This document shows, piece after piece, positions 13,084-61,810 of a stretch of 64,000 nt of DNA (its first letter is position 1; every line of letters begins with the position of its first letter). The notes under the pieces are model-generated. The model was not told the DNA's origin. It saw nothing but the letters and a program-made list of their open reading frames with translations, and did no database searches. The DNA is from a phage, in sequence record PV808484.1; one strand, 5' to 3'. A program made the translations under genes and the position numbers.

Positions 13084-13635
13084 ATGCGGATTACTGATAA
13101 GTATGTGTTCTTCTTCTCGGCAAAAGATGAATTTAGCAACTGGTATCTATCATCTTTTATTGAACCTTTAGCTCCCAAGTATAATAATTCTATCACAAGT
13201 TCTGTCGAATTTACTTGTGTGGAACAATATATGATGTGGAGAAAAGCATGTTTATTTTATGATTACAACATTGCATCTTCTATTTTAACCGGAGATCTAA
13301 GATATACAGGAGAAAAAGAACAAGCATATTATAAGCGACTAGGTAGATTAGTTAAAGATTATGATGAAGATACCTGGACTTCTTTACGGGAGAAGATTGT
13401 CAAACGTGGTTTGTATCTTAAATACACACAAAATGAAGATCTCAAAAATAAACTTATAGCTTACGCAGATAAGGAGTTCGTAGAGGCAAGCCCTTATGAT
13501 TCTATTTATGGTATCAAAATGGGGATGTGGGATCGTGATGTTGAAAATAAGGATTGTTGGAAAGGACAAAATCTTTTAGGAAAATGGCATACAGACCTTG
13601 CTGTTTATCTAAAAGCACAATCTGATATTTCCTGA
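13084..13635 (+). CDS. NADAR (YbiA-like, DUF1768) domain protein
   Basis: FFFSAKDEFSNWY, FTCVEQYMMWRKA, GIKMGMWD...NLLGKWH match NADAR signature blocks; ATG overlaps upstream stop. Confidence 0.7.
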   Translation: MRITDKYVFFFSAKDEFSNWYLSSFIEPLAPKYNNSITSSVEFTCVEQYMMWRKACLFYDYNIASSILTGDLRYTGEKEQAYYKRLGRLVKDYDEDTWTSLREKIVKRGLYLKYTQNEDLKNKLIAYADKEFVEASPYDSIYGIKMGMWDRDVENKDCWKGQNLLGKWHTDLAVYLKAQSDIS

Positions 13636-39821: not shown

Positions 39822-40634
39822 TTACTTAGTCAAATGATCTTCTATCATTTTTATGAAAGCAGGATTGCTAAAAGCATCTGCTGCCTTTTCTCTATAAACA
39901 AAGACTCCTCTATCTTCGTAAAGAAGAGTTTCTTCGTAATTAATTCCTGGGTTAACAACAATCATTTTTGTACCCATATTAAGTGCAGGGAATAATTCCC
40001 AATTAAAATTGATAACTTGGTTTGAACATCCTACTACAACAACCAAATCTTGCATGGTCAAAGTATCAAACAAGTGAGCCATATCTGCATACAAAGGTGC
40101 AGCCTCACCAAAAAATACAACATTAGGCTTCACCCAGTTATAATCATCTATGTTTATACTATTGTAACCAATGTCTACCAGTGTTTTGTAATCTCCAGGA
40201 TGCATACGGTAAACTACTTCAGGAAGATACCCGTGCACGTGAATAACAGAATCCCTGTCCACACCTGCTCGCTCTAGTAGATCATCAACGTTTGTTGTCA
40301 AGTTTACTACTTGGTTAGGATATTCCTTAAACCACTTTGCTATTTGAATATGTGCAGCATTAGGTTGTACATCTTTAAGCTCAACACGTCTTTTGTTATA
40401 AAATTCGTGTGTTTTGGCATACAAGTCCATACCGTTCTCGTCTACACCACCGACCACTGGAAGATCTGGAGATGTTCTCACACGATAACCTGCTTGGAAA
40501 GCTCCAATATCGCAGACCTCTTCTAAGTCATATTCTTCCCATAAGGCACGACCACTATCTGTGTCTGTTCGGAACGTTCGAATCCCACTGTCTGCACTTA
40601 AACCTGCGCCACTAACAAAAATTACTCTTCGCAT
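39822..40634 (-). CDS. Sir2-family NAD-dependent protein
   Basis: GAGLSADSGIRTFR, TTNVDDL, VHG motifs; no CxxC zinc module seen. Confidence 0.75.
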   Translation of the reverse strand: MRRVIFVSGAGLSADSGIRTFRTDTDSGRALWEEYDLEEVCDIGAFQAGYRVRTSPDLPVVGGVDENGMDLYAKTHEFYNKRRVELKDVQPNAAHIQIAKWFKEYPNQVVNLTTNVDDLLERAGVDRDSVIHVHGYLPEVVYRMHPGDYKTLVDIGYNSINIDDYNWVKPNVVFFGEAAPLYADMAHLFDTLTMQDLVVVVGCSNQVINFNWELFPALNMGTKMIVVNPGINYEETLLYEDRGVFVYREKAADAFSNPAFIKMIEDHLTK

Positions 40635-41965: not shown

Positions 41966-42955
41966 CTATTCCTCCATACATTTAAGAATATGTGCAATGA
42001 CAGGTATAGTCCAACCGTTACCTAACATCTTATATGCTTGTGTGTTACTACTCACTTTAAAGTAATCATCTGGCACACCTTGCAAGCGGCAACACTCTTT
42101 AACCGTTAACTTTCTATAATGTACGCCTTCACTCAATTTTTCAAAGGCATCTAGATATCTTCCAGGTGGAATGTAGGCTAATAGTACGTCTTTAGGCACA
42201 GTCGTGAGGCAACGAGTTTTTTCACTGTCCTGAACTTCCAAACAATGTACCAAACGATCAGTTTTAGATGTACTACGTTTGCCATTTTCATTAATTCTAC
42301 GCCCATATATTGCTGCCGGATAAAAAACCAGTTGTCTGCGACTCTTTTCAAAATACTGTTCTATATTACCACCTTTGGCATAATTTGCATCTATGCAATA
42401 AGCCTTATCTCTGTCTACAATACTATCATCTTCAATGATATCTTGCAACACTTCATTGGTAATCTCCCAGGGTTTTATTTCCCAGTTGCACCAGTATAAA
42501 CGTTGTCTATTCTGTGCCGTGAAATCTGCGGAGTTAATGAATACGGGATCAACACCTAAGTAACTTGTGATCACGTTTTCCCACTCCACTTTCATCTTAA
42601 CGTTTTCAAGCATGAACTTAACATTAGGATTAAACTTTTTAATATGTTCAAGAATTTCAACATATTCGAAGAATAGCTTAGATCGCGGATCTTGAAAGTT
42701 CAAACCCTTACCAGAAGAAGAGAAGCCTTGACACGGACTACCACCTAACAAAAGATCAATTTCTCCCCACGGGATATCCCATTCTCTCCATTTTGTAACA
42801 TCACCTAACTGAATAATATCTGGAAAATTTGCTTGGCTTTCAGCTACGGCAAATTTGTCTAATTCTGAAGCGTAATATGTATCTACTTCAATACCTGCAC
42901 TTTTTAGCGCAAGCATTCCTCCTGACATACCATCAAAAAGACTTAAAACTTTCAT
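41966..42955 (-). CDS. dcm: DNA cytosine-5 methyltransferase
   Basis: LFDGMSGG (motif I), GGSPCQGFS (motif IV), MLENV (motif VI). Confidence 0.85.
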   Translation of the reverse strand: MKVLSLFDGMSGGMLALKSAGIEVDTYYASELDKFAVAESQANFPDIIQLGDVTKWREWDIPWGEIDLLLGGSPCQGFSSSGKGLNFQDPRSKLFFEYVEILEHIKKFNPNVKFMLENVKMKVEWENVITSYLGVDPVFINSADFTAQNRQRLYWCNWEIKPWEITNEVLQDIIEDDSIVDRDKAYCIDANYAKGGNIEQYFEKSRRQLVFYPAAIYGRRINENGKRSTSKTDRLVHCLEVQDSEKTRCLTTVPKDVLLAYIPPGRYLDAFEKLSEGVHYRKLTVKECCRLQGVPDDYFKVSSNTQAYKMLGNGWTIPVIAHILKCMEE

Positions 42956-46995: not shown

Positions 46996-47658
46996 TTATT
47001 TAATATTCAATTTTGCACAAAGACGTTGTACCGCTTTGGCATCGAACAAACTCCCACGAATAGTTCTCTTTCCTGATTCATTCAGATGCTTTGCAATCGT
47101 CATATATGGCGTTTTACAAGCTCTGTATGCAACTAAAGAATCTTTTAAAGAAAGCGCAAACTCTCTTGAGCGTTTTGCTTCTTCCGTTTTCGTATAATCT
47201 GTTCTTTTGTATTTAGGGTTTGCTGCACCAAGAAGCGTTCCCTTCGCTTTTGCTACCTTAAGGCTCTTCTTAACACGATCAGATATTGCACGAGCCTCTT
47301 CTTCTGCCAGAACTGCTAAAATATTTATTATCATATTTTCAGCGGAGGGCATAGTTGCTATTCGTACATTAATCATCTCTAACAAGGTTGCAACAGAAGC
47401 TGTGTTACGTCCAAGACGGTCAACCTTAGCAACAACAAGTGTAGCACCTGTTTCTTTGCAAAGATTAACAGCTTTTACAAGCTCTCTACGTTGCTTCCAA
47501 TCGCCTTTACCCGAATAAAACTCTGCAAAGCTACCTACAATAGTATAATTTTCTTGTGAATCCAGGAAGCGTTGAATATCTGCTTCCTGTGATTCTATAC
47601 CATACTGGTTGCCTTGTTGTTTCTTCTTAGAAAGTCGATGATATAGTACAAACTTCAT
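46996..47658 (-). CDS. serine recombinase (resolvase/invertase family)
   Basis: N-terminal YHRLSKKKQ with catalytic Ser, VAKVDRLGRN, C-terminal HTH-like segment; GGAGGG SD. Confidence 0.8.
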   Translation of the reverse strand: MKFVLYHRLSKKKQQGNQYGIESQEADIQRFLDSQENYTIVGSFAEFYSGKGDWKQRRELVKAVNLCKETGATLVVAKVDRLGRNTASVATLLEMINVRIATMPSAENMIINILAVLAEEEARAISDRVKKSLKVAKAKGTLLGAANPKYKRTDYTKTEEAKRSREFALSLKDSLVAYRACKTPYMTIAKHLNESGKRTIRGSLFDAKAVQRLCAKLNIK

Positions 47659-49131: not shown

Positions 49132-49785
49132 TTAATTATCAGAGGACACTTTATCAAGTTTTTCAGAGACTGTCAATACTTTTTCTTGTGATTCTTTCAT
49201 TTCTGCTAAAATACTTTCAGCTTCATCACTATCAGGATCACCAGTCAACAGCATACTAATTAGTTGCTCCTTGCTGAAGTTCAGAATATCTTCCGCTGTT
49301 AACTCCAGTTGTTCTTCGATCTCTTCGATAAAAGTTTCACCGCCTGAAAAAGCATCTCGCAGTTTTGCAACTTCCATCGCTTCTTCTGGGGTTGCCCCAG
49401 CGTCTAAAGCTGCTAAAGCAAAATCTGCCCCACTACCCACAGCATAATAATCTTCAGTTAAAGGATATGCTCGCGTTGGATTATTACCCTCGTGCATATA
49501 AATTTTACCGTCTGGGTGAACAACCAATGCCACAAACTCTTCATCTTCTTTATCAGGATCTGACTGGATCACCAAACCTGGGATTGTCTCTTGTGCTGCT
49601 TGGCATTGTAAGTTTTGTTCGAACCAAGAAAAGAAAGTCAGGATAGAAGACAGACGTCCTGCACCACCAACAAGGTAATCCCCAATTTTACGCACTTTCT
49701 TGAAATTTAAAGTGTCTACACGACTACCTACTGTTACCTTACCGTCAGACAGAATTTTGTTACGTGTTGCAATAATTGTTGTCAT
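49132..49785 (-). CDS. HslV/proteasome beta-like Ntn peptidase
   Basis: N-terminal MTTIIATR, DGKVTVG, KVRKIGDYLVGGAG, AVGSGADFALAA align with HslV blocks. Confidence 0.65.
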   Translation of the reverse strand: MTTIIATRNKILSDGKVTVGSRVDTLNFKKVRKIGDYLVGGAGRLSSILTFFSWFEQNLQCQAAQETIPGLVIQSDPDKEDEEFVALVVHPDGKIYMHEGNNPTRAYPLTEDYYAVGSGADFALAALDAGATPEEAMEVAKLRDAFSGGETFIEEIEEQLELTAEDILNFSKEQLISMLLTGDPDSDEAESILAEMKESQEKVLTVSEKLDKVSSDN

Positions 49786-51065: not shown

Positions 51066-51084
51066 GTTTGCACTCCTTATAAAA

Positions 51085-51098
51085 GGGGCTTTCGCCCC
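51085..51098 (-). terminator. intergenic GNRA-loop hairpin (attenuator-like) abutting RBS
   Basis: minus-strand RNA GGGGCGAAAGCCCC then UUUUAUAAGGAG and phoH ATG; identical to 39798 element. Confidence 0.45.
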
Positions 51099-51103
51099 TT
51101 TGT

Positions 51104-51764: not shown

Positions 51765-52025
51765 TTACTCCGCAATCTGAGCCATGAATTCACGTAGTTC
51801 AGAAAAACCTCCTACGTGGGTTAGCTGTTCACCATCTTCCACAAAAATCTGAGGAAATGTGCGTGGTAGAACACCTGTTTTCTCTAAAACCAGATTCTGA
51901 ATCTGATCTAAAGAATAGTCTTCATCTAAGGTAAGGTATTTAAAATCCTGTTCACGCTGTTCTAGTAGAATCTTAGCGTTAGTGCAGAAAGGACAATTTG
52001 GTTTACCGTAGATAATAAAATTCAT
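51765..52025 (-). CDS. glutaredoxin-like protein
   Basis: CPFC active site; start set to ATG (MNFIIYGKPNCPFC) with AAGGAG SD. Confidence 0.8.
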   Translation of the reverse strand: MNFIIYGKPNCPFCTNAKILLEQREQDFKYLTLDEDYSLDQIQNLVLEKTGVLPRTFPQIFVEDGEQLTHVGGFSELREFMAQIAE

Positions 52026-52027
52026 TT

Positions 52028-52858
52028 TCACTCCTTGTTTAAAAGTATAGTTAAAGTTCTTACAATACCGCTATCAACACTTCGCGGATTTAAAGTAGGA
52101 TCTGTTTTTAAATAAGATGTTGCTGGTCTGACTGCTTTGGAATTATAGGTTGAAGCAGACACAGGATTAACTGTAACAGATAAATCTATAACAAGAAATA
52201 TCTTTCGTGCAAAATCATACCAAGAAATATAATCTGCACCTGCATAGTGTACAATTTTACTATTTACACCATCTTTTACAAGTTTAAAAATTGTTTCTGC
52301 AAGATCAGGTGCATAAGTAGGACATGATAAATGATCACATACTACATTAAATTCTTTTTGACCACCGTTGTAGCGTTCCAACATAGTTTTCAAAAAGTTA
52401 TGTCCAAATTCACTATAAACAGAAGCTGTTCTGATAATAAGTGCTGTAGGACAAACTGTTTGTACTAAAGTTTCACCTAATTGTTTACTGTAACCGTAGG
52501 TGTTCAAGGGGTTTGTTTTACTATCTTCTGTGCCAGCAACATGCCCATCAAAAACATAGTCTGTTGAAATATGTACAAACTGTATCAGTAAATCATTACA
52601 TGCTTTGGCAATGTTTGTTGCACCGTATGCATTAACATTTATACAGGTGTTAACATCTTCTTCAGCTTTATCTACTGCCGTGTAAGCCGCACAATTCACA
52701 ACAACATCAGGCACATGCTGTACAAGACTATTCATAACATCTTTAAAGTTGGTAATGTCTATATCACTTGCTTCAATCAAAACAACATCTTCTGGTGCAA
52801 CTTTTGCCAAAGATTGTCCTAATTGACCTTTTGATCCAAAGACTAAAAATTTTGTCAA
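52028..52858 (-). CDS. rmlD: dTDP-4-dehydrorhamnose reductase (probable TTG start)
   Basis: N-terminal FGSKGQLGQ Rossmann motif; typical RmlD length; AAGGAG SD. Confidence 0.8.
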   Translation of the reverse strand: MTKFLVFGSKGQLGQSLAKVAPEDVVLIEASDIDITNFKDVMNSLVQHVPDVVVNCAAYTAVDKAEEDVNTCINVNAYGATNIAKACNDLLIQFVHISTDYVFDGHVAGTEDSKTNPLNTYGYSKQLGETLVQTVCPTALIIRTASVYSEFGHNFLKTMLERYNGGQKEFNVVCDHLSCPTYAPDLAETIFKLVKDGVNSKIVHYAGADYISWYDFARKIFLVIDLSVTVNPVSASTYNSKAVRPATSYLKTDPTLNPRSVDSGIVRTLTILLNKE

Positions 52859-53409
52859 AGTATGATCTCCTTTAGTGTTTTTGCTTCCTGATCTTTTTGT
52901 GACAAGATAGGTTTAAAATTAATATCATTAAAGATTAAATCAAAACCCCAATCTATATTGATATCTGGATCATTCCACGCAAGACTACATTCTGAAGTCG
53001 GATCGTAATATTCTGTACATTTATATTCAAAATCAGCAATATCGCTAATCACAACAAAGCCATGAGCGAAACCAGGAGGAATCCAAAATTGTGTTTTATT
53101 CTTTTCAGATAAGAGAACACCTACCCATTCTCCAAATGTTGGACTACCAACCCTAATATCTACAGCAACATCATAAACTTCACCACGAACACAGCGTACT
53201 AACTTCCCTTGTGGGTTTTTCTTTTGAAAATGAAGCCCACGTAGAACTCCTCGGATAGAACGTGAATGGTTATCTTGGACAAAGTTTTGTTTACCTATGT
53301 ATTGATCATATAAAGCCTGATTAAAACTTTCTAAGAAAAAGCCACGTTCATCTCCGTAAACGTCAGGTTGAATGATCAACAAATCTTCGATTTTTGTTGC
53401 TTGAATCAT
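52855..53409 (-). CDS. rmlC: dTDP-4-dehydrorhamnose 3,5-epimerase
   Basis: GDERGFFLESF, RGLHFQ and cupin-type motifs. Confidence 0.85.
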   Translation of the reverse strand: MIQATKIEDLLIIQPDVYGDERGFFLESFNQALYDQYIGKQNFVQDNHSRSIRGVLRGLHFQKKNPQGKLVRCVRGEVYDVAVDIRVGSPTFGEWVGVLLSEKNKTQFWIPPGFAHGFVVISDIADFEYKCTEYYDPTSECSLAWNDPDINIDWGFDLIFNDINFKPILSQKDQEAKTLKEIIL

Positions 53410-53421
53410 TTAATTCCCCTT

Positions 53422-54291
53422 TTATTTTAATTTAAGTAAATACTTACCGTAGTCTGTTTTACTTAAAACCTCTCCAGAACTTTTTACAGAGTCTAAAGTA
53501 ATCCATTCATTTTTAAAAGCAATCTCTTCCAGGCATGCAACCTTCATACCTTGTTGCTTCTCTATTGCATGAACAAATTGAGATGCTTCCATAAGACTTT
53601 CATGTGTTCCTGTATCCAGCCAAGTGAAACCTCTTCCTAGCTTACAGACACGTAAAGCCTTTTCTTTCCAGTACATCTCATTTATATCTGTGATCTCTAA
53701 CTCCCCTCTAGCAGAAGGCTTAACGCTTTTAGCTTTCTGTATAACAGAATTATCGTAAAAGTACAAGCCTGTAATTGCATAGTTGCTTTTTGGTGCTTTT
53801 GGTTTTTCTTCAATACTTACTACTGTACCTTCAGAATCAAACTCAACAACACCAAATCTTTCAGGATCATTTACGTGATACCCAAAAATATTAGCTCCAC
53901 CATTCTTTTCAATATGTTCTCTAGCAGAATCTAAAATGCTACCAAAACTCTGACCAAAGAATAAATTATCACCTAGAACAAGTGCTACAGAATCTTCACC
54001 AATAAAGCTCTCACCAATAATAAACGCTTCTGCTAAACCTTTTGGGCTGTCCTGTATTGCATACTGTAGGGAAACACCAAAAGAAGAACCATCACCTAGA
54101 AGATTTACAAAATTAATTTGATCTTCTGGTGTTGTAATTATTAGTATTTCCCTAATTCCAGAAAGCATTAGGACAGAGAGTGGATAATAAATCATAGGTT
54201 TATCGTAAATTGGTAATAGTTGTTTACTAACCCCTTTAGTAACTGGGTAAAGTCTTGTCCCACTACCACCCGCTAAGATAATACCTTTCAT
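53422..54291 (-). CDS. rmlA: glucose-1-phosphate thymidylyltransferase
   Basis: [18 protein letters not shown]...[16 protein letters not shown]. Confidence 0.9.
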
Positions 54292-54299
54292 ACTCCTCC

Positions 54300-55289
54300 T
54301 TAAACTTTATTTTCCCACCACTCTTTGTTATCTACATACCAATCAATGGTTGAATAAAGTTTTTCTTCAAATGTGCCTTTAGCTTTCCACCCTAATTCCT
54401 TTTCAATCTTATAAGGATTCACTTCATATCTTAAATCATGCCCAGGTCTATCTGTAACCATCTCAATGAGGCTACAAGCATCTGTTTCAGATGGATATAC
54501 CGCATCCATATAATCACAAATCATATAGATTACATCAATATTAGTTCTAGGGTTTCTGCTCCCAATATTATATGTCTCTCCAGATTTGCCTTTAGTTACT
54601 ACCAGGTGTAATGCTTCTGCGTGATCATCAACGTATAGCCAATCTCTTACTTGAAGACCATCGCCATAAACAGGGATTGGTTTATTCATTAAGATATTTG
54701 TTATCGTCTTAGGTATTAGTTTTTCTGGATGATGATATGCTCCAAAATTATTTGAACAATTTGTTATAACTGTCGGAATACCATAAGTACGATGCCACGC
54801 TCTTACCAAATGATCGCTTGCAGCTTTAGATGCAGCATATGGACTACTTGGTTTATAAGGATTCTGTTCTGTAAACGGATAATCCCCTTCTTCCATATCA
54901 CCATACACTTCATCTGTTGAAATATGATGGAACATTTTAAGATTTGATTTATCTCCCATTAAACGAACAGCTTCTAGAAGATTAAATGTTCCAACAATAT
55001 TTGAATTTATAAAAACACTCGGTGATGCTATTGAATTATCTACGTGACTCTCTGCTGCAAGATGCATTATATAATCTGGATTAACATCTGCCACAATCTT
55101 AGCAGTTAACTGCGCATTTGTCAAGTCAACACGACAAAACTTTACATTAGGTGTTTCTGATAAATTTCTAGGGTCTGAAGCGTAACCCCATTTATCTATA
55201 ACGTAAATATCATTCTTAGTATTTTTAGCTAGGAAACGAACTACCGCACTTCCAATAAAGCCTAAACCACCTGTTACTAAGTATTTCAT
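54300..55289 (-). CDS. rmlB: dTDP-glucose 4,6-dehydratase
   Basis: TGGLGFIGS Rossmann motif, YAASKAASD catalytic YxxxK. Confidence 0.9.
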
Positions 55290-55483
55290 TTAGTCTCCTT
55301 CCAATTATTACCTTCAGTAAAAATAATACCTTCATAAAACAACCATCTGGAACCTTTTTCAACAGGAACAGGAAGCTCTTCTTCAGTAAAGTTATAAACC
55401 TCTCTAGCATCTTCTAAAAGTGATGCAAATGTTTTTGGACTTACTGTTACGCGAGGAGCATTGATCAATTGATCTAGCATCAT
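55286..55483 (-). CDS. hypothetical protein
   Basis: start at internal ATG with AAGGAGG SD. Confidence 0.45.
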   Translation of the reverse strand: MMLDQLINAPRVTVSPKTFASLLEDAREVYNFTEEELPVPVEKGSRWLFYEGIIFTEGNNWKETK

Positions 55484-55496
55484 TCTACTATCCTCC

Positions 55497-55823
55497 TTAC
55501 CAAACGTGTTGAGAAATAATAGTTTCCGTTTCAATGTTATATTTTTCAAGAAGTTGTGCATAGGCTTCTTTTGCATTTTTATTTAGTTGCTCAAGATCTA
55601 CAGCTACACTTCCTTCGCCACCTTCTAAATAAATGCCATATATGCAATAAGATTCATCAGCGTCATAGAAAGGTGAGATACGGCTTAAATCAAGACCTTC
55701 TTGTAAGAACCAATTAAAATCTCCATCAAATTCTTCTTCAATTCTAGGATCTTCTCCTACAGCCTCTTCCCATTTATTAAAAGGTGCACCCTGTAACATA
55801 CGCCATTCAGTGTCAACTCCCAT
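55497..55823 (-). CDS. hypothetical acidic protein
   Basis: 108 aa ORF. Confidence 0.5.
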   Translation of the reverse strand: MGVDTEWRMLQGAPFNKWEEAVGEDPRIEEEFDGDFNWFLQEGLDLSRISPFYDADESYCIYGIYLEGGEGSVAVDLEQLNKNAKEAYAQLLEKYNIETETIISQHVW

Positions 55824-56138: not shown

Positions 56139-56349
56139 CTTTTTCTCCTTTGATAATTTCAAACTTGGCTACACCATTAACTATAATGTGACCGCAAGAC
56201 ATAACCCCTAGCCAATGATCACCATTCTTTTTTAAACGTTTACCGTAAACATCACAGAAACCATTCTGTAATTCGGAAGCCTCATAAGAGGCTCCCTTTT
56301 CGAAAACGTCTTTGAAGTCAGAAATTAATCCAACACAAAGTAGTTTCAT
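56131..56349 (-). CDS. hypothetical protein
   Basis: 72 aa; ATG overlaps nrdB stop. Confidence 0.5.
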   Translation of the reverse strand: MKLLCVGLISDFKDVFEKGASYEASELQNGFCDVYGKRLKKNGDHWLGVMSCGHIIVNGVAKFEIIKGEKDD

Positions 56350-57434
56350 TAAAAGTCTAACTCCTCGTCATCACTTACATCTTTATTTGCTGAATTCAGT
56401 TTGTAAGCTGTAATTTGGATCTCCTGTGCTGCTGCTTGAATTTGATCTGGATTTAACCAAACATCCATCCAAGGCAGTGGACTTTTCTTCGGTGCACGGA
56501 ATTTGTGTTTCATTTTCAGTCTGCGATAGATAGGCGCGGCATTGAAGTAAACCCAAAGTTTGAACAACTCTGCGTTACCACCAACGATAACCCTTCCTTC
56601 ACTAAACAGATAGTCACACCAATCTTCCTCTTGTCCAACTACCGTATCAAGAATTTCTGTCAGAACGTCGATATTGTCTTCGTATACTTTTCTCCAGACA
56701 GGATCTTTCAGCAGTGCATCAATAATAGCATAATCCATTTTAACGTGCAATAGTTCATCCAACATAATTTTTTGAATGAGTTTAGCTGCACCTACAAACA
56801 GTTGCTGCTCTGCTAAGGCAAATGTTGCAGCAAAAGATGATATGAATTGAATGCCTTCCAGACCGATAAGTGCAATCATTCCTTTCAGAATCAGTAGACG
56901 AAGGTTATCATCCTTCTCAATCAGACCTAGAGCATATTTATGTCCTGCCTCTGCCAGATCACTCATTATCTCTTCAACTATACCCATCCTCTGGAAGATT
57001 CTTTCGTTCTCCATAATCTGATCGATAACTTCATTTGGATTAGGGATACACTGACGAATAATTTCAGAATATGTCAAAGCGTGTAAAACTTCCATTTCTG
57101 ATTGCTTCATCATCATTGCACATGCTTCGTTGTTGCTTAAAAATGGTGCAAACAAAGTGATGATTGATTTAGCAAGTGAATCATTTTCCCATTGGAAGGA
57201 TAGGTTTTTGATCATAACATCATAGTTGCTTTTAGAACAAGCTACGAAATCTTTTCGTGTCTGATCTAAGTTTACTTCGTTTTCATCCCAATCTTGCTGT
57301 TTTTGTAGTTTGTACAGACGATGCATTTCTGGGTATGTTACATTAATAGAATCAAAAATACCTAACTGTTCTCCCAAAAATACAGGGTAGAAACCTTCTT
57401 TGTAAGTGTCGTTGTATAAGTTAATTGCTGCCAT
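56349..57434 (-). CDS. nrdB: ribonucleotide reductase class Ia small subunit
   Basis: 361 aa; diiron/tyrosyl-radical subunit pattern; adjacent to nrdA. Confidence 0.9.
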   Translation of the reverse strand: MAAINLYNDTYKEGFYPVFLGEQLGIFDSINVTYPEMHRLYKLQKQQDWDENEVNLDQTRKDFVACSKSNYDVMIKNLSFQWENDSLAKSIITLFAPFLSNNEACAMMMKQSEMEVLHALTYSEIIRQCIPNPNEVIDQIMENERIFQRMGIVEEIMSDLAEAGHKYALGLIEKDDNLRLLILKGMIALIGLEGIQFISSFAATFALAEQQLFVGAAKLIQKIMLDELLHVKMDYAIIDALLKDPVWRKVYEDNIDVLTEILDTVVGQEEDWCDYLFSEGRVIVGGNAELFKLWVYFNAAPIYRRLKMKHKFRAPKKSPLPWMDVWLNPDQIQAAAQEIQITAYKLNSANKDVSDDEELDF

Positions 57435-57756
57435 TTAAATCCTCCACAATATCACACATTGCTTTTATTGTATCAATGTGTTCTCTCTCCATACCATCCT
57501 CTAGGTAAGCCTTCTCTAATGCGTCCCATACACTCTTTGTGAGTAGTATAGTAACCTCTCCCTCATACCTTGCTCTGGTTAAAGCATACCAGGTAGCTAT
57601 GGGATCATTGGAAGCCCATATTTCAACACTGGAAAATTGAAAACCTGCAATATAATGACAACACCAATCGAATGTAAAATCTTTACTATCTACCAGTGTA
57701 TAATTTCCCCAGCGTCTTTGTGGTGTTGCCCCAGGTAATACAACTAATGTAGGCAT
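57421..57756 (-). CDS. hypothetical protein
   Basis: start at internal ATG (MPTLVVLP) with AAGGAGG SD just after hairpin. Confidence 0.5.
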   Translation of the reverse strand: MPTLVVLPGATPQRRWGNYTLVDSKDFTFDWCCHYIAGFQFSSVEIWASNDPIATWYALTRARYEGEVTILLTKSVWDALEKAYLEDGMEREHIDTIKAMCDIVEDLNGSN

Positions 57757-57772
57757 ATTCCTCCTTAAGAAA

Positions 57773-57788
57773 GGGGGACAAAGCCCCC
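57773..57788 (-). terminator. intergenic hairpin abutting RBS
   Basis: GGGGG-ACAAAG-CCCCC between nrdA stop and next SD. Confidence 0.4.
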
Positions 57789-57796
57789 TAGTTTCA

Positions 57797-60058
57797 TTAC
57801 ATCTTACAAGCCTCACAACCGGATTCTTCATCCTCTTGAGCGAGTGAGGTTGCCGATTTTGTTCTGCTATTTAGATAGTACAAAGATTTACCACCAAGTT
57901 TTGCAAACTGAAGAATATATTGCATTTCTGATTTAATGGATAAACGACCACCTTCCATCTTAGAATAGTCAATCCACTTATCACATGATGCACCTTGATC
58001 TAAGAATTTAGTCAATAGTCCATATGCTTCAGCCATATCTTTATCTGGCGTATCCCAAGCCGATTGGTAAATATCTTTTAGTTTATCGTAATCTGGCACA
58101 ATAAACAGAACATTACCTTTTTGGCTTTGTTTATAAACTATAGTATCACGTACAGGATACACAGAGTTAGTCGTATTACTTACAAGACTACTGGACTCAT
58201 TCGGAGCAATAGCTGCTAATACACTATTTCGGATACCGCCTTGTGCAATGATATCTTGTCGTAAACCTTCCCAATCCATTTTAAGTTTAAAATTGCCAAT
58301 ATCATCTACAGCTTTAGCGTAGGTGTCAATAGGCAACCATCCTTCAGGCCATTTGGTTTTATGCATCCATTCTGCATTACCTTTCTCTTTTGCCAAACGA
58401 AGAGAAGCTCTTGCTAACCAATAATAATGTCTTTCTGCTAATTCGTGAATTAGTTTTTTGCCGTAAGGATCTGAATAAGTAACAAAATTACTTGCCAGAT
58501 AATGTGCAAGGTTTGTAATACCTACACCGATAGACCTACGTGCTTTAGCAGTGATTTCGTTATGTTTAAACGGATACTGCATTGTTTCAATCACATTATC
58601 AATAGTTAGAACGGTATAATATGCAACATCTTCATATTCTTCTGGTGTAACACGACCAGCTACAATAGAAGACAAGAAGCATAATGCCAATTCTTGATCT
58701 TCTGTGTTCTCACCTGTGAAAAGATCCGTCATACTGTGAAATGCTTTCGTAGGTAAGAAAATTTCTTGGCACAAGTTTGACTGATAAATAACATCCTTAA
58801 ACGGAGTATGCTTATTAGCATTATCCGCAAAGAACATATAAATACGTCCTGTCTCTGCTCTTTGTGTAATAATTTCTGCCAGAAGATCTCGTGCTTTTAC
58901 AAACTTCTTCTTAATTCGTTTGCGACTAACTTTTTCATATACTTCTTCAAACTCTTCCTCGCTTTTATAAAGCGCCTCATAGAGTTCTGGTGCTTCGTCA
59001 TAACTGACTAGCATCCAATCTTTGCCTTTTGCTGCACGGCGCAGGAAAGCATTGTTTACTACAATAGAGTAATCAAGTTTATCTACTCGTTTTTCACTAA
59101 CAGTAGTTGGGTTTTTCAAACGTACCAGATCTTCAAAATCAGGTTCTAGTATTGTAAACGTTACTGTTGCACTTCCACCACGACTTGCTTGTTTTGATGC
59201 TCCAACACTTGTTTCCATCCATTTCAGATATGGTAAAAGACCACCGTGAACGATACGGTTGTTCTTAACACCTTGTCCTGTAGCACGGGTTTGGAGGTTA
59301 ACACCAATACCTGCATTATTCAATGTATATTCATGAGCAAGATAGTTAGCAATTGCTAAAGATTCTGCTGTATCGTCTGCTCTAAACAGACAACAAGAAG
59401 CACTACCTTTAATCTTAGTACGCAAAGTTGTTAAATAAGGTGATGGTAAATTAATCTTAAGATCACTTACGTAGGTATATAGACGTTTAATGTCTTCTAC
59501 TCTGCGATCTTTTGGTTGGATTTCCATTACCTTCATTGCTACACCAATGAATAAAAATTGTGGTGATTCAAAAACCACATCATTGATCGCATCTTTCACA
59601 AGATACTTATCAACCATCTGGCGCAGTACGGAATAACCATAAGTTAGGTTTTTATCATGATTGATAATTTTACCAATCTCAATAATTTCTTCTTCTGTAT
59701 AATCCATTTTCCCCCAATAGCCTTTACTTACAGACATATTGTAGAAATCCAGGAGGGAGGGGATATTGTGATATCCCCCATGAGCCTGTTTATAGATCAT
59801 ACCAAGAAGTAACCGACCTGCCATATCACTATATGCCTGATCTTTCTTATCAATACATGCTGCTATCATAGCTTTATGTAAATCACGAGTAGGCACACCG
59901 TCGTAACAACGTTTAACAGCTTCGAGTTCAATTTCAGACCAATTTAATTTACCAGCAGCAAACTCTGACCATTTACGAAGTTTTTCTGGATTAAATTCTT
60001 CTTTCTTGCCGTTTGTTTTTGTTACATAACGGATAGATTTGCTTAGATACTGAGTCAC
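57797..60058 (-). CDS. nrdA: ribonucleotide reductase class Ia large subunit (probable GTG start)
   Basis: 753 aa; catalytic Cys-containing blocks and C-terminal CEACKM tail; AGGAGAGG SD. Confidence 0.9.
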   Translation of the reverse strand: MTQYLSKSIRYVTKTNGKKEEFNPEKLRKWSEFAAGKLNWSEIELEAVKRCYDGVPTRDLHKAMIAACIDKKDQAYSDMAGRLLLGMIYKQAHGGYHNIPSLLDFYNMSVSKGYWGKMDYTEEEIIEIGKIINHDKNLTYGYSVLRQMVDKYLVKDAINDVVFESPQFLFIGVAMKVMEIQPKDRRVEDIKRLYTYVSDLKINLPSPYLTTLRTKIKGSASCCLFRADDTAESLAIANYLAHEYTLNNAGIGVNLQTRATGQGVKNNRIVHGGLLPYLKWMETSVGASKQASRGGSATVTFTILEPDFEDLVRLKNPTTVSEKRVDKLDYSIVVNNAFLRRAAKGKDWMLVSYDEAPELYEALYKSEEEFEEVYEKVSRKRIKKKFVKARDLLAEIITQRAETGRIYMFFADNANKHTPFKDVIYQSNLCQEIFLPTKAFHSMTDLFTGENTEDQELALCFLSSIVAGRVTPEEYEDVAYYTVLTIDNVIETMQYPFKHNEITAKARRSIGVGITNLAHYLASNFVTYSDPYGKKLIHELAERHYYWLARASLRLAKEKGNAEWMHKTKWPEGWLPIDTYAKAVDDIGNFKLKMDWEGLRQDIIAQGGIRNSVLAAIAPNESSSLVSNTTNSVYPVRDTIVYKQSQKGNVLFIVPDYDKLKDIYQSAWDTPDKDMAEAYGLLTKFLDQGASCDKWIDYSKMEGGRLSIKSEMQYILQFAKLGGKSLYYLNSRTKSATSLAQEDEESGCEACKM

Positions 60059-60838: not shown

Positions 60839-61810
60839 TCACCATTTTGTATGGTTAGTCAAAAGTTGACGATGTTGAATCCAACCACAGAAGTTTCCAC
60901 TCCACAAACGATGTTTACGATCCATATGTGTAATACCTTCTTCCCAAGAGGAAGGGAACGGAGGAATATTAATACCACCTTTCTGTTGTTTTAATCCTGA
61001 CAAATCCATTTCTTTCATTGGCGTTGCCTGGTGTTCAAACGGAGATGCATGTACCTTTTGTCCAGACAGCAAACGAGAATAGATATCCAATGCTTTATCT
61101 TTAGTATCATTCAACTTACGATAACTTACCTGAGCGCAACAAGAAGCTGAAATAGCTTTTGCTTCATCTTCTGTCAACATTTTCTCGTTGGAGAAGGTTT
61201 CACCCAAGAAATAACGGATCATACCAGTTTCTGGATCTCGATCACGATTAACGTAAGGTGTATGCCACTCCCCTGGGAAAAGAAGATATGGTTCAGAAGA
61301 TTCATACAGTTTTTTAATTTCTTTAGCAAGAGCCTCAATAGTAGGATCTGCATCAGCATCTACGCGCAACCACAAGAAGTTTTCTAACTCTGTAGTGGTT
61401 ACTACAGTCTTCATACGCTGGAATGGTTCTAGTAGTCGGTTTGCAACCTGTTTATGATAACCAGCAAGAGCAAACTCTTCTGCAAAACGTGCAGCACTTA
61501 GCGCAGCCAAGTCCCACCATTCTTTTGCAGTGTAACCTGCATCAATCAGGGCATCGTGATCTGTGCCTTTATCTTGCATACCTGGTTGGTTAGCACCAAA
61601 ACGATAAGGACGTGCTGGAGATTGCCGTACCATTTCAATTAGAGTTTTAACAGGGATAGCTCGACTTGATGCGGCATTACGAGAAAACAAACGATGCGTC
61701 ATCAATTCAGAGTGAATGATTCGAGGATATTCAAGTTCAAAGGTAACAATATCCTTACCTTCAGATGTTTGAGAGTGTGCAATAATTTTTGCTGAAATAG
61801 AATCTGTCAT
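60839..61810 (-). CDS. thyX: ThyX-like (flavin-dependent thymidylate synthase family) protein
   Basis: THRLFSRNAASSR aligns with ThyX RHR-x7-S block but first Arg is Thr; ENFLWLRVDADA matches downstream ThyX block. Confidence 0.7.
   Translation of the reverse strand: MTDSISAKIIAHSQTSEGKDIVTFELEYPRIIHSELMTHRLFSRNAASSRAIPVKTLIEMVRQSPARPYRFGANQPGMQDKGTDHDALIDAGYTAKEWWDLAALSAARFAEEFALAGYHKQVANRLLEPFQRMKTVVTTTELENFLWLRVDADADPTIEALAKEIKKLYESSEPYLLFPGEWHTPYVNRDRDPETGMIRYFLGETFSNEKMLTEDEAKAISASCCAQVSYRKLNDTKDKALDIYSRLLSGQKVHASPFEHQATPMKEMDLSGLKQQKGGINIPPFPSSWEEGITHMDRKHRLWSGNFCGWIQHRQLLTNHTKW

Follow-up and report, generated by a model that had tools for sequence, protein, structure and literature searches.

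Genes for the four enzymes that synthesize deoxythymidine diphosphate (dTDP)-L-rhamnose form tight, co-transcribed clusters in bacteria, the rmlBDAC (or rfbBDAC) operons of Salmonella, Escherichia coli, and Pseudomonas. A cluster of the same four enzyme families, with the same motifs, is present at positions 52028 to 55289 of a 64,000-nucleotide stretch of phage DNA (sequence record PV808484.1; hereafter, the window). In contrast to the bacterial operons, the phage genes are ordered B-A-C-D, lie within a ribonucleotide reductase/glutaredoxin operon, and are unaccompanied by wzx/wzy genes or an initiating transferase. They have only ~66-68% nucleotide identity to the E. coli genes, and RmlD scores better against Bacillus and Clostridium enzymes than against the Salmonella enzyme, which argues against a recent capture from the host. 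The explanation that we favor, with about even confidence in the whole, is that the cassette guarantees dTDP-L-rhamnose in a host of any serotype and feeds the phage's own glycosyltransferases (GTs), which probably act on phage proteins and not on DNA.

The rml region is 98-99% identical at the nucleotide level to that of phage phi92 (gp064-067) and of about 55 other Justusliebigvirus records in GenBank, and on the phi92 map the window runs from ~121,931 to the end of the record and then from 1 to ~36,847. The host phage is thus a phi92-like E. coli phage, and dozens of its relatives have GenBank records in which the four rml genes are named. The cassettes of phi92, other Justusliebigvirus, and Phapecoctavirus are orthologous and syntenic to the one described here, with no material difference, and the window represents a further isolate of the same lineage (PMC7552041, PMC8594841, PMC6969025). 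The presence of rmlBACD in phi92-type phages is therefore already known, being annotated in GenBank and discussed in two of these papers (PMC7552041, PMC8594841). Olsen et al. 2020 (PMC7552041) described the pathway as complete, found its position in the DNA metabolism region "peculiar", and proposed the rhamnosylation of hydroxymethylated nucleotides. Maffei et al. 2021 (PMC8594841) reported that phi92-like phages are "exceptionally susceptible" to restriction-modification (RM) systems "despite ... a putative dTDP glycosylation machinery". Both the pathway with its rhamnosylation idea and the RM susceptibility were restated in 2024 (PMC10844046), and Mathieu et al. 2020 (PMC6969025) listed RmlA and RmlB as auxiliary metabolic genes that virulent coliphages carry. 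In our literature search, no publication was found that resolves the function of the phi92-type rml pathway. Three records labeled as Campylobacter phages (A150, A145, and C3; MG065639, MG065645, and MG065656) are ~98% identical to the window phage in the rml and GT regions; the likely reason is an error in the stated host or an origin of the phages in contaminating E. coli.

Virus-borne nucleotide-sugar pathways that are likewise combined with soluble GTs of the virus itself have been described in giant viruses (Mimivirus R141/L780; PBCV-1 GTs such as A064R). The giant-virus systems use uridine diphosphate (UDP)-L-rhamnose made by two enzymes, as opposed to the four-enzyme dTDP route here. 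Their acceptors (capsid or fibrils) have been established experimentally; those of the phi92-type system are candidates. Among tailed phages, small clusters of soluble GTs glycosylate capsid and tail-tube proteins in mycobacteriophages such as Che8 (gp108-110), Corndog, and Myrna (Freeman et al. 2023, summarized in PMC11256854 and PMC12363180). No rml genes are present in the examined GT regions of Che8 and Pacc40, and no mycobacteriophage is among the RmlC matches listed. Phage DNA glycosylation is known from T4 (AGT/BGT) and from GTs associated with TET/5mYOX or ThyS (bioRxiv 10.1101/2023.12.21.572611), the latter described in a study that nowhere mentions dTDP or rhamnose. Unlike those systems, the phi92-type phage has no detected enzyme for making a hydroxymethyl base.

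The dTDP-L-rhamnose cassette and its operon

An earlier note on this DNA, made from the sequence without database searches, had described the four rml enzymes as complete, contiguous, and on one strand. The open reading frames (ORFs) bear this out: rmlB, rmlA, rmlC, and rmlD lie head to tail on the minus strand (Table 1), and each product exceeds the NCBIfam equivalog cutoff for its family. RmlA (TIGR01207) scores 471.5 bits against a cutoff of 360.65, with residues 2-288 covering profile positions 1-284 of 286, i.e., essentially full length. RmlB (TIGR01181) scores 444.5 bits (cutoff 365.1), RmlC (TIGR01221) 259.8 bits (cutoff 155.75), and RmlD (TIGR01214) 253.5 bits (cutoff 224.05), the smallest margin of the four. 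Pfam assignments are concordant for all of them. The closest solved structures are Salmonella enzymes for RmlB (1g1a, 393 bits), RmlA (1iim, 419 bits, aligned continuously over 287 residues), and RmlC (1dzr, 219 bits), and the Bacillus anthracis enzyme 3sc6 for RmlD (154 bits).

The residues expected of active enzymes are retained. RmlB has the GGxGFIG, STDE, and YxxxK (PYAASK) motifs, and the N-terminal nucleotide-binding loop of RmlA (GGxGTRL, here GGSGTRL) is identical to that of the Salmonella enzyme. In RmlC the regions of the catalytic His and Lys of the cupin site (RGLHFQ and GKLVRC) are kept; a C-terminal Asp (in "SQKD") was spotted by eye beyond the block aligned with 1dzr. The GxxGxxG (GSKGQLG), STDYVF (STDYVFDG), and YGxSK (YGYSK) motifs of RmlD align with 3sc6 and with 1vl0. 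These homology and structure comparisons, which the note had named as the way to check its assignments, thus support all four enzyme assignments. The four genes are intact and under purifying selection, with 35 synonymous and 11 nonsynonymous differences relative to phi92 (pN/pS 0.085), which lends the predicted activity indirect support only.

The cassette is accordingly predicted to encode a working dTDP-L-rhamnose pathway, a component of the explanation to which our overall, middling confidence applies jointly. RmlA would combine glucose-1-phosphate with deoxythymidine triphosphate (dTTP) to give dTDP-glucose, which RmlB would convert to dTDP-4-keto-6-deoxyglucose. RmlC would then epimerize this product at C3 and C5, and RmlD would complete the pathway by NAD(P)H-dependent reduction to dTDP-L-rhamnose.

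The gene junctions are tight. The stop codon of a 65-aa ORF overlaps the start of rmlB as ATGA, as read directly from the sequence; rmlB and rmlA are separated by 8 nt containing an AGGAGG Shine-Dalgarno (SD) sequence, rmlA and rmlC by 12 nt, and rmlD and the glutaredoxin gene (grx) by 2 nt, with the grx start more likely at the ATG at 52025. The rmlC stop and the rmlD start overlap as cTTTGA. Translational coupling, which had been ascribed to the whole cassette, is therefore borne out by overlap at rmlC/rmlD, while the other rml pairs are closely spaced, with SD sequences of their own, and do not overlap. The TTG start of rmlD, also proposed earlier, has an AAGGAG 7 nt upstream, and it is well supported by Phapecoctavirus ESCO5, Citrobacter phage Tr1, and Klebsiella phage KP13-26, in which the homologous codon is ATG, the SD sequence before it is the same, and so is the N-terminus leading into GxxGxxG.

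No terminator-like hairpin was found on the minus strand from nrdB to the lysozyme gene, consistent with a single transcription unit and with the earlier placement of the rml genes in the nrd/grx/tdk operon. The only strong terminator-like structure near the cassette is a perfect 8-bp GC-rich palindromic hairpin (AAAGGGGC-TTTC-GCCCCTTT) in the interval between the lysozyme gene and phoH, which may mark the end of an nrd-rml-grx-lysozyme transcription unit. A promoter scan was uninformative, the 50 sites found being no excess over the 48.7 in shuffled sequence.

The cassette seems to have been inserted into an older nucleotide-metabolism operon, since the flanking genes nrdB and grx have orthologues in PVP-SE1/rV5, whereas the phi92 annotation notes cite none for the genes between them, including rml. 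In the proposed mechanism, the cassette would have entered between nrdB and grx and would be co-transcribed with the operon. The same syntenic site holds the cassette in ESCO5, Tr1, and KP13-26. Our conclusion is that the pathway matters for its end product, dTDP-L-rhamnose, and that proximity to genes of deoxynucleotide synthesis reflects the site of insertion, not a shared chemistry. The link to dTTP-derived sugar chemistry that the earlier note had raised from this proximity is therefore weak, the more so as no hydroxymethylase or TET enzyme was detected and phi92-like phages are sensitive to restriction.

The rml locus itself suggests a mosaic history. A 108-aa ORF upstream of the cassette is 92% identical in ESCO5, whereas the Rml proteins of ESCO5 are merely 62-71% identical to those of the window. 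This ORF is 46% identical in KP13-26 and has no match in Tr1; its relation to rml is one of association only. Another site within the nrd operon, between nrdA and nrdB, looks like a variable insertion site, with a 136-aa ORF without a family match in the window, a 657-nt HNH endonuclease gene (gp074) in phi92, and different small ORFs in other relatives.

Conserved core of the cassette and supply by the host

The four genes are not equally conserved among relatives. KP13-26 has only rmlC-rmlD at the syntenic site, rmlA being absent from its cassette, and Phapecoctavirus ESCO37 lacks both rmlA and rmlB and yet is viable. RmlC is present in 170 phage records and in every relative examined within the Stephanstirmvirinae. 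Among Escherichia phage records, tblastn finds RmlA in 88 and RmlC in 106; among Klebsiella phage records, the counts are 0 and 8. This pattern, new in this analysis, identifies rmlC-rmlD as the conserved core, with rmlB-rmlA as an optional addition.

The gene content of the hosts offers a reason. All Enterobacterales make dTDP-4-keto-6-deoxyglucose for the enterobacterial common antigen (ECA). An rmlA-type gene is present in all 5426 complete E. coli genomes (median of two per genome), and rfbC was detected, at similar identity, in 2141 of the 5426 (39%), a count that is a lower bound because it comes from blastn at ~67% identity. Every E. coli makes the RmlB product but most lack RmlC and RmlD, which would account for the conservation of rmlC-rmlD and the dispensability of rmlB-rmlA. 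The phage would supply the two steps missing in most hosts and usually two more that raise the flux.

A core of rmlC-rmlD suits diversion of the intermediate as well as supply of the end product. The cassette, with or without the GTs, might serve to manipulate the host envelope, either by providing more dTDP-rhamnose for O-antigen or core that contains rhamnose, or by having RmlC and RmlD drain dTDP-4-keto-6-deoxyglucose from the synthesis of dTDP-Fuc4NAc and ECA, the primary receptor of the phage itself, which could become scarcer on infected cells, and so limit superinfection or the loss of progeny on infected cells and debris. The RmlC substrate is an established branch point to ECA, and GT4- and GT2-like enzymes without transmembrane segments, such as the GTs of phi92, often act on lipid-linked glycans. 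Further, phage EmilieFrey, which is 98.7% identical in the rml region, needs wecB and the lipopolysaccharide core genes waaC/waaG and has been described as ECA-targeting. However, the rV5-like phages have also been described as ECA-targeting (PMC8594841), yet no rV5/PVP-SE1 orthologue of rml is cited in the phi92 notes. The genes come without a flippase, polymerase, initiating phosphoglycosyltransferase, or other membrane component, and a lytic cycle allows little time for remodeling surface glycans that are already in place. Pure diversion would also leave unexplained why rmlA and rmlB are retained by most members under purifying selection and why four GTs are co-inherited. We therefore regard an envelope function as unlikely.

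Partner glycosyltransferases and candidate acceptors

The earlier note had recognized no GT. This holds for the window, in which tblastn with phi92 gp163-166 gave no match and a Pfam batch scan of the other substantial ORFs listed no GT family, but not for the genome. The wider search that the note had proposed leads to four contiguous annotated GTs in phi92 (gp163-gp166, coordinates 102,200-105,376), 16.5-19.7 kb past the left edge of the window, so their apparent absence is a matter of where the window ends. This GT cluster, at 95-99% identity, is shared by 56 phage records, and the rml region at 95-99% identity is carried by equally many. In protein comparisons, the phage distribution of each GT family is almost that of RmlC, with 106-107 Escherichia and 8-10 Klebsiella records in addition to Citrobacter, Serratia, and Salmonella relatives. 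Like the rml genes, and unlike the genes that flank them, the GTs are given no PVP-SE1/rV5 orthologue in the phi92 notes.

All four proteins are assigned as glycosyltransferases by PHROGs, and none has a transmembrane segment. gp163 and gp164 are paralogues (40.6% identity) with weak Pfam matches to GT-B families; the gp164 family has 176 relatives, some of them in bacterial genomes. The gp165 family is small (17 homologues), and several of its members lie on contigs whose length (~135-153 kb) fits related phages. Confident structure models are of the GT2-like GT-A and GT4-like GT-B types, with structural neighbors that span every acceptor class. PBCV-1 A64R and Mimivirus R699/R655 are among the neighbors of the gp165 model, which was built on a database homologue (P0001) that is 78% identical to gp165. 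We infer that these GTs use dTDP-rhamnose, and likewise the identity of their acceptor: the sugar nucleotide would most likely be used by the soluble enzymes gp163-166, and the likeliest acceptor would be a phage, probably virion, protein.

Some features of gp165 are suggestive of DNA as the acceptor. It has a Pfam TAGT match of 23.4 bits, which is below threshold, and a weak PHROG match to beta-glucosyl-hydroxymethylcytosine alpha-glucosyltransferase, and the invariant residues of its family (R16, D64-D66, and E141-D142) resemble the R...DDD...ED[Y/F] signature of DNA-modifying GT-A enzymes. In the published suggestion (PMC7552041, PMC10844046), extended to these enzymes, the GTs would move rhamnose from dTDP-L-rhamnose onto a hydroxymethylated or otherwise activated base, in the manner of glucosyl-5hmC in T4 or of the TET-associated GT systems, and so shield the genome from nucleases. 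The position of rml in a nucleotide-metabolism operon, the location of the phi92 GTs beside primase-helicase and DNA polymerase genes, and a C5-cytosine methyltransferase gene in the window could all be accommodated. However, neither a TET/JBP dioxygenase nor a ThyA-type hydroxymethylase is among the Pfam matches listed for the window, including the surroundings of the methyltransferase gene, or in the annotation and precomputed Pfam matches of the remainder of phi92, which suggests that DNA glycosylation would lack its defining feature here, the enzyme that makes a hydroxymethyl base. Restriction sensitivity in phi92-like phages (PMC8594841, PMC10844046) and the occurrence of the GT cassette in structural operons of temperate phages, away from any base-modification genes, further count against DNA as the acceptor, and we regard its hypermodification as decidedly improbable.

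Two genes of the window invite comparison with DNA-modification systems. The C5-cytosine DNA methyltransferase is a canonical Dcm-type enzyme (PF00145, 150 bits) with FDG, PCQ, ENV, and GNG motifs; a methyltransferase-TET-GT pathway starting from it was considered and rejected, as neither the surroundings of the gene nor the rest of the window yielded a dioxygenase. The 323-aa "ThyX-like" protein is a strongly diverged, putative thymidylate synthase, with only a partial Pfam Thy1 match (37 bits) and with the first Arg of the RHR motif replaced by Thr (THRLFSRNAASSR); at E<=0.01, the PDB gave no relative by sequence. Its gene has orthologues in PVP-SE1/rV5 and is therefore not tied to rml.

Homologues of gp166, gp165, and gp164, which are adjacent and in one orientation in phi92, are also adjacent in unrelated Pseudomonas and Serratia prophages, at 34-50% identity. 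In a Pseudomonas alliivorans prophage, the three homologues are present in that order (42%, 36%, and 45% identity), directly after the major capsid gene and before connector and tail genes (contig L011, 8861-10942), and the trio also directly follows the major capsid gene in a related contig (L097). In a Serratia prophage, the trio is located between the lysis genes and the HNH/terminase/capsid genes, just before terminase (L013, 5589-7670), and in another contig (L098) it precedes terminase and portal genes. In two further phages, as in phi92, the trio neighbors replication genes. IMG/VR contains at least 542 confirmed relatives, and a GT-B gene is beside a gp165-like GT-A gene in ~35 of 79 fetched loci, most of which also have a gp166-like gene. 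One IMG/VR contig (L028, 7946-9010) has a gene for a 354-aa short-chain dehydrogenase/reductase inside the GT cassette; its top match is to dTDP-glucose 4,6-dehydratase (195 bits, below the equivalog cutoff), a second physical link between the cassette and the synthesis of 6-deoxyhexoses. The trio is thus a mobile cassette, which is new in this analysis; our literature search found no description of it. In Trinickia symbiotica and Burkholderia dolosa (L012, 4742-11026; L016, 3025-8440), a lone gp164-like GT-B gene stands third in a group, behind the genes for an invasin/intimin-like adhesin and for a 555-571-aa protein with no assigned function; this group may be an adhesin-glycosylation operon.

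In 19 loci that do not belong to the phi92 group, most of the larger genes up to 7 kb from the cassette encode terminase, portal, capsid, or tape-measure proteins. This enrichment for head genes is suggestive only, as about half of random positions in genomes of 40-50 kb lie equally near the head module and the tally is modestly above chance. Overall, the module is predicted to be soluble, cytoplasmic, and mobile, and its context most often points to phage structural proteins as the acceptor.

The solubility of the GTs and their expression from early/middle regions in phi92 would also be compatible with a cytoplasmic target in the host. Rhamnose could be transferred to a defense protein or a signaling nucleotide so as to inactivate it, to the translation machinery, or to another small molecule, and the rhamnosylation of EF-P by EarP is a bacterial precedent for protein modification of this kind. 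The genome has other candidate counter-defense genes (Sir2-family, NADAR-domain, and methyltransferase). However, the location of the cassette in late/structural operons of temperate phages ill suits an early counter-defense role, and we consider a cytoplasmic target the least probable of the possibilities. The earlier note had listed virion glycosylation, host surface remodeling, and nucleic-acid modification as possible uses of the product, and we judge that list to be right.

Several observations weigh against the explanation that we favor, in which self-made dTDP-L-rhamnose feeds GTs that act on phage proteins. In phi92, the GT genes adjoin replication genes and not structural genes, and other phages have the GT cassette but not rml. 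That rml and the GTs are distributed alike largely reflects one shared ancestry and not repeated independent gain and loss, and the lower bound on rfbC and the modest head-gene tally limit what can be drawn from either. GT4-like GT-B enzymes are retaining and seldom use dTDP-beta-L-rhamnose; not all four GTs, therefore, need be rhamnosyltransferases. Finally, gp165 has no detectable similarity to the virion-glycosylation GTs of Che8, and BLASTP of gp163-166 against Che8 gp108-110 gave no match better than E=0.4. By tblastn, gp165 distantly matches GTs that occupy the corresponding locus at the right end of other cluster-F-type phages. A link to Che8 through such matches in about 50 Mycobacterium phages was discarded, as the matched protein (Pacc40 gp98) is another, larger GT encoded at that locus.

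Neighboring features and significance

Features of the window that are discussed here are listed in Table 1. For the 65-aa ORF, phrog_27883 matches residues 32-96 of a longer version of the reading frame. Pfam matches elsewhere in the window include Sir2-family, NADAR (YbiA-like), proteasome-subunit (HslV-like), and serine resolvase ORFs; the last three assignments rest on the annotations of EmilieFrey and KP13-26, and that of Sir2 does not. The Sir2-family and NADAR genes are candidates for host takeover or counter-defense.

Table 1 Positions of the rml cassette and of other features in the window
Feature	Position	Strand	Product and remarks
rmlB	54300-55289	(-)	329 aa; TIGR01181, 1g1a; ATG within ATGA overlapping the stop of the upstream ORF
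rmlA	53422-54291	(-)	Glucose-1-phosphate thymidylyltransferase, 289 aa; TIGR01207, 1iim; optional in relatives
rmlC	52855-53409	(-)	dTDP-4-dehydrorhamnose 3,5-epimerase, 184 aa; TIGR01221, 1dzr
rmlD	52028-52858	(-)	dTDP-4-dehydrorhamnose reductase, 276 aa; TTG start; TIGR01214, 3sc6
grx	51765-52025	(-)	Glutaredoxin; downstream flank of the apparent insertion, ancestral operon gene; PF00462, 45 bits; phi92 gp063, PVP-SE1 orthologue gp141
nrdB	56349-57434	(-)	Upstream flank of the apparent insertion, ancestral operon gene; phi92 gp073, PVP-SE1 orthologue gp139
65-aa ORF	55286-55483	(-)	Function unassigned; stop overlaps rmlB start; phi92 gp068 annotated at the same length
108-aa ORF	55497-55823	(-)	phrog_15453, function unassigned; upstream of the cassette, with one small ORF between; directly adjacent in ESCO5 and KP13-26
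136-aa ORF	57421-57831	(-)	No family match; nrdA/nrdB slot
Hairpin	51082-51101		Lysozyme/phoH interval
ThyX-like gene	60839-61810	(-)	323 aa
C5-cytosine methyltransferase	41966-42955	(-)	Dcm-type
Sir2-family gene	39822-40634	(-)	Pfam match
NADAR (YbiA-like) gene	13084-13635	(+)	Pfam match
HslV-like gene	49132-49785	(-)	Proteasome-subunit fold, Pfam match
Serine resolvase gene	46996-47658	(-)	Pfam match

In the years since the 2012 sequencing of phi92, the one idea that we found in print for the role of the rml genes has been DNA rhamnosylation, which fits poorly with the published restriction sensitivity and with the gene content checked here. The genes gp163-166, the natural variants without rmlA and rmlB, and a predicted phenotype solely on hosts that lack rfbC/rfbD provide handles for testing what the pathway does. 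Our wider suggestion, which we hold tentatively and with less than even confidence, is that phi92-like and Phapecoctavirus coliphages place rhamnose glycans on their own virion proteins (capsid, tail, or tail fibers) by means of a mobile GT cassette and self-made dTDP-L-rhamnose. Phages of both groups are common, serve as components of therapy and biocontrol cocktails, and have host ranges among the broadest of coliphages. If the suggestion is correct, they would be, as far as we know, the first tailed phages infecting Gram-negative bacteria with autonomous virion glycosylation, which may bear on their very broad host range, on stability and adsorption, and on antibody evasion and immune recognition in phage therapy.

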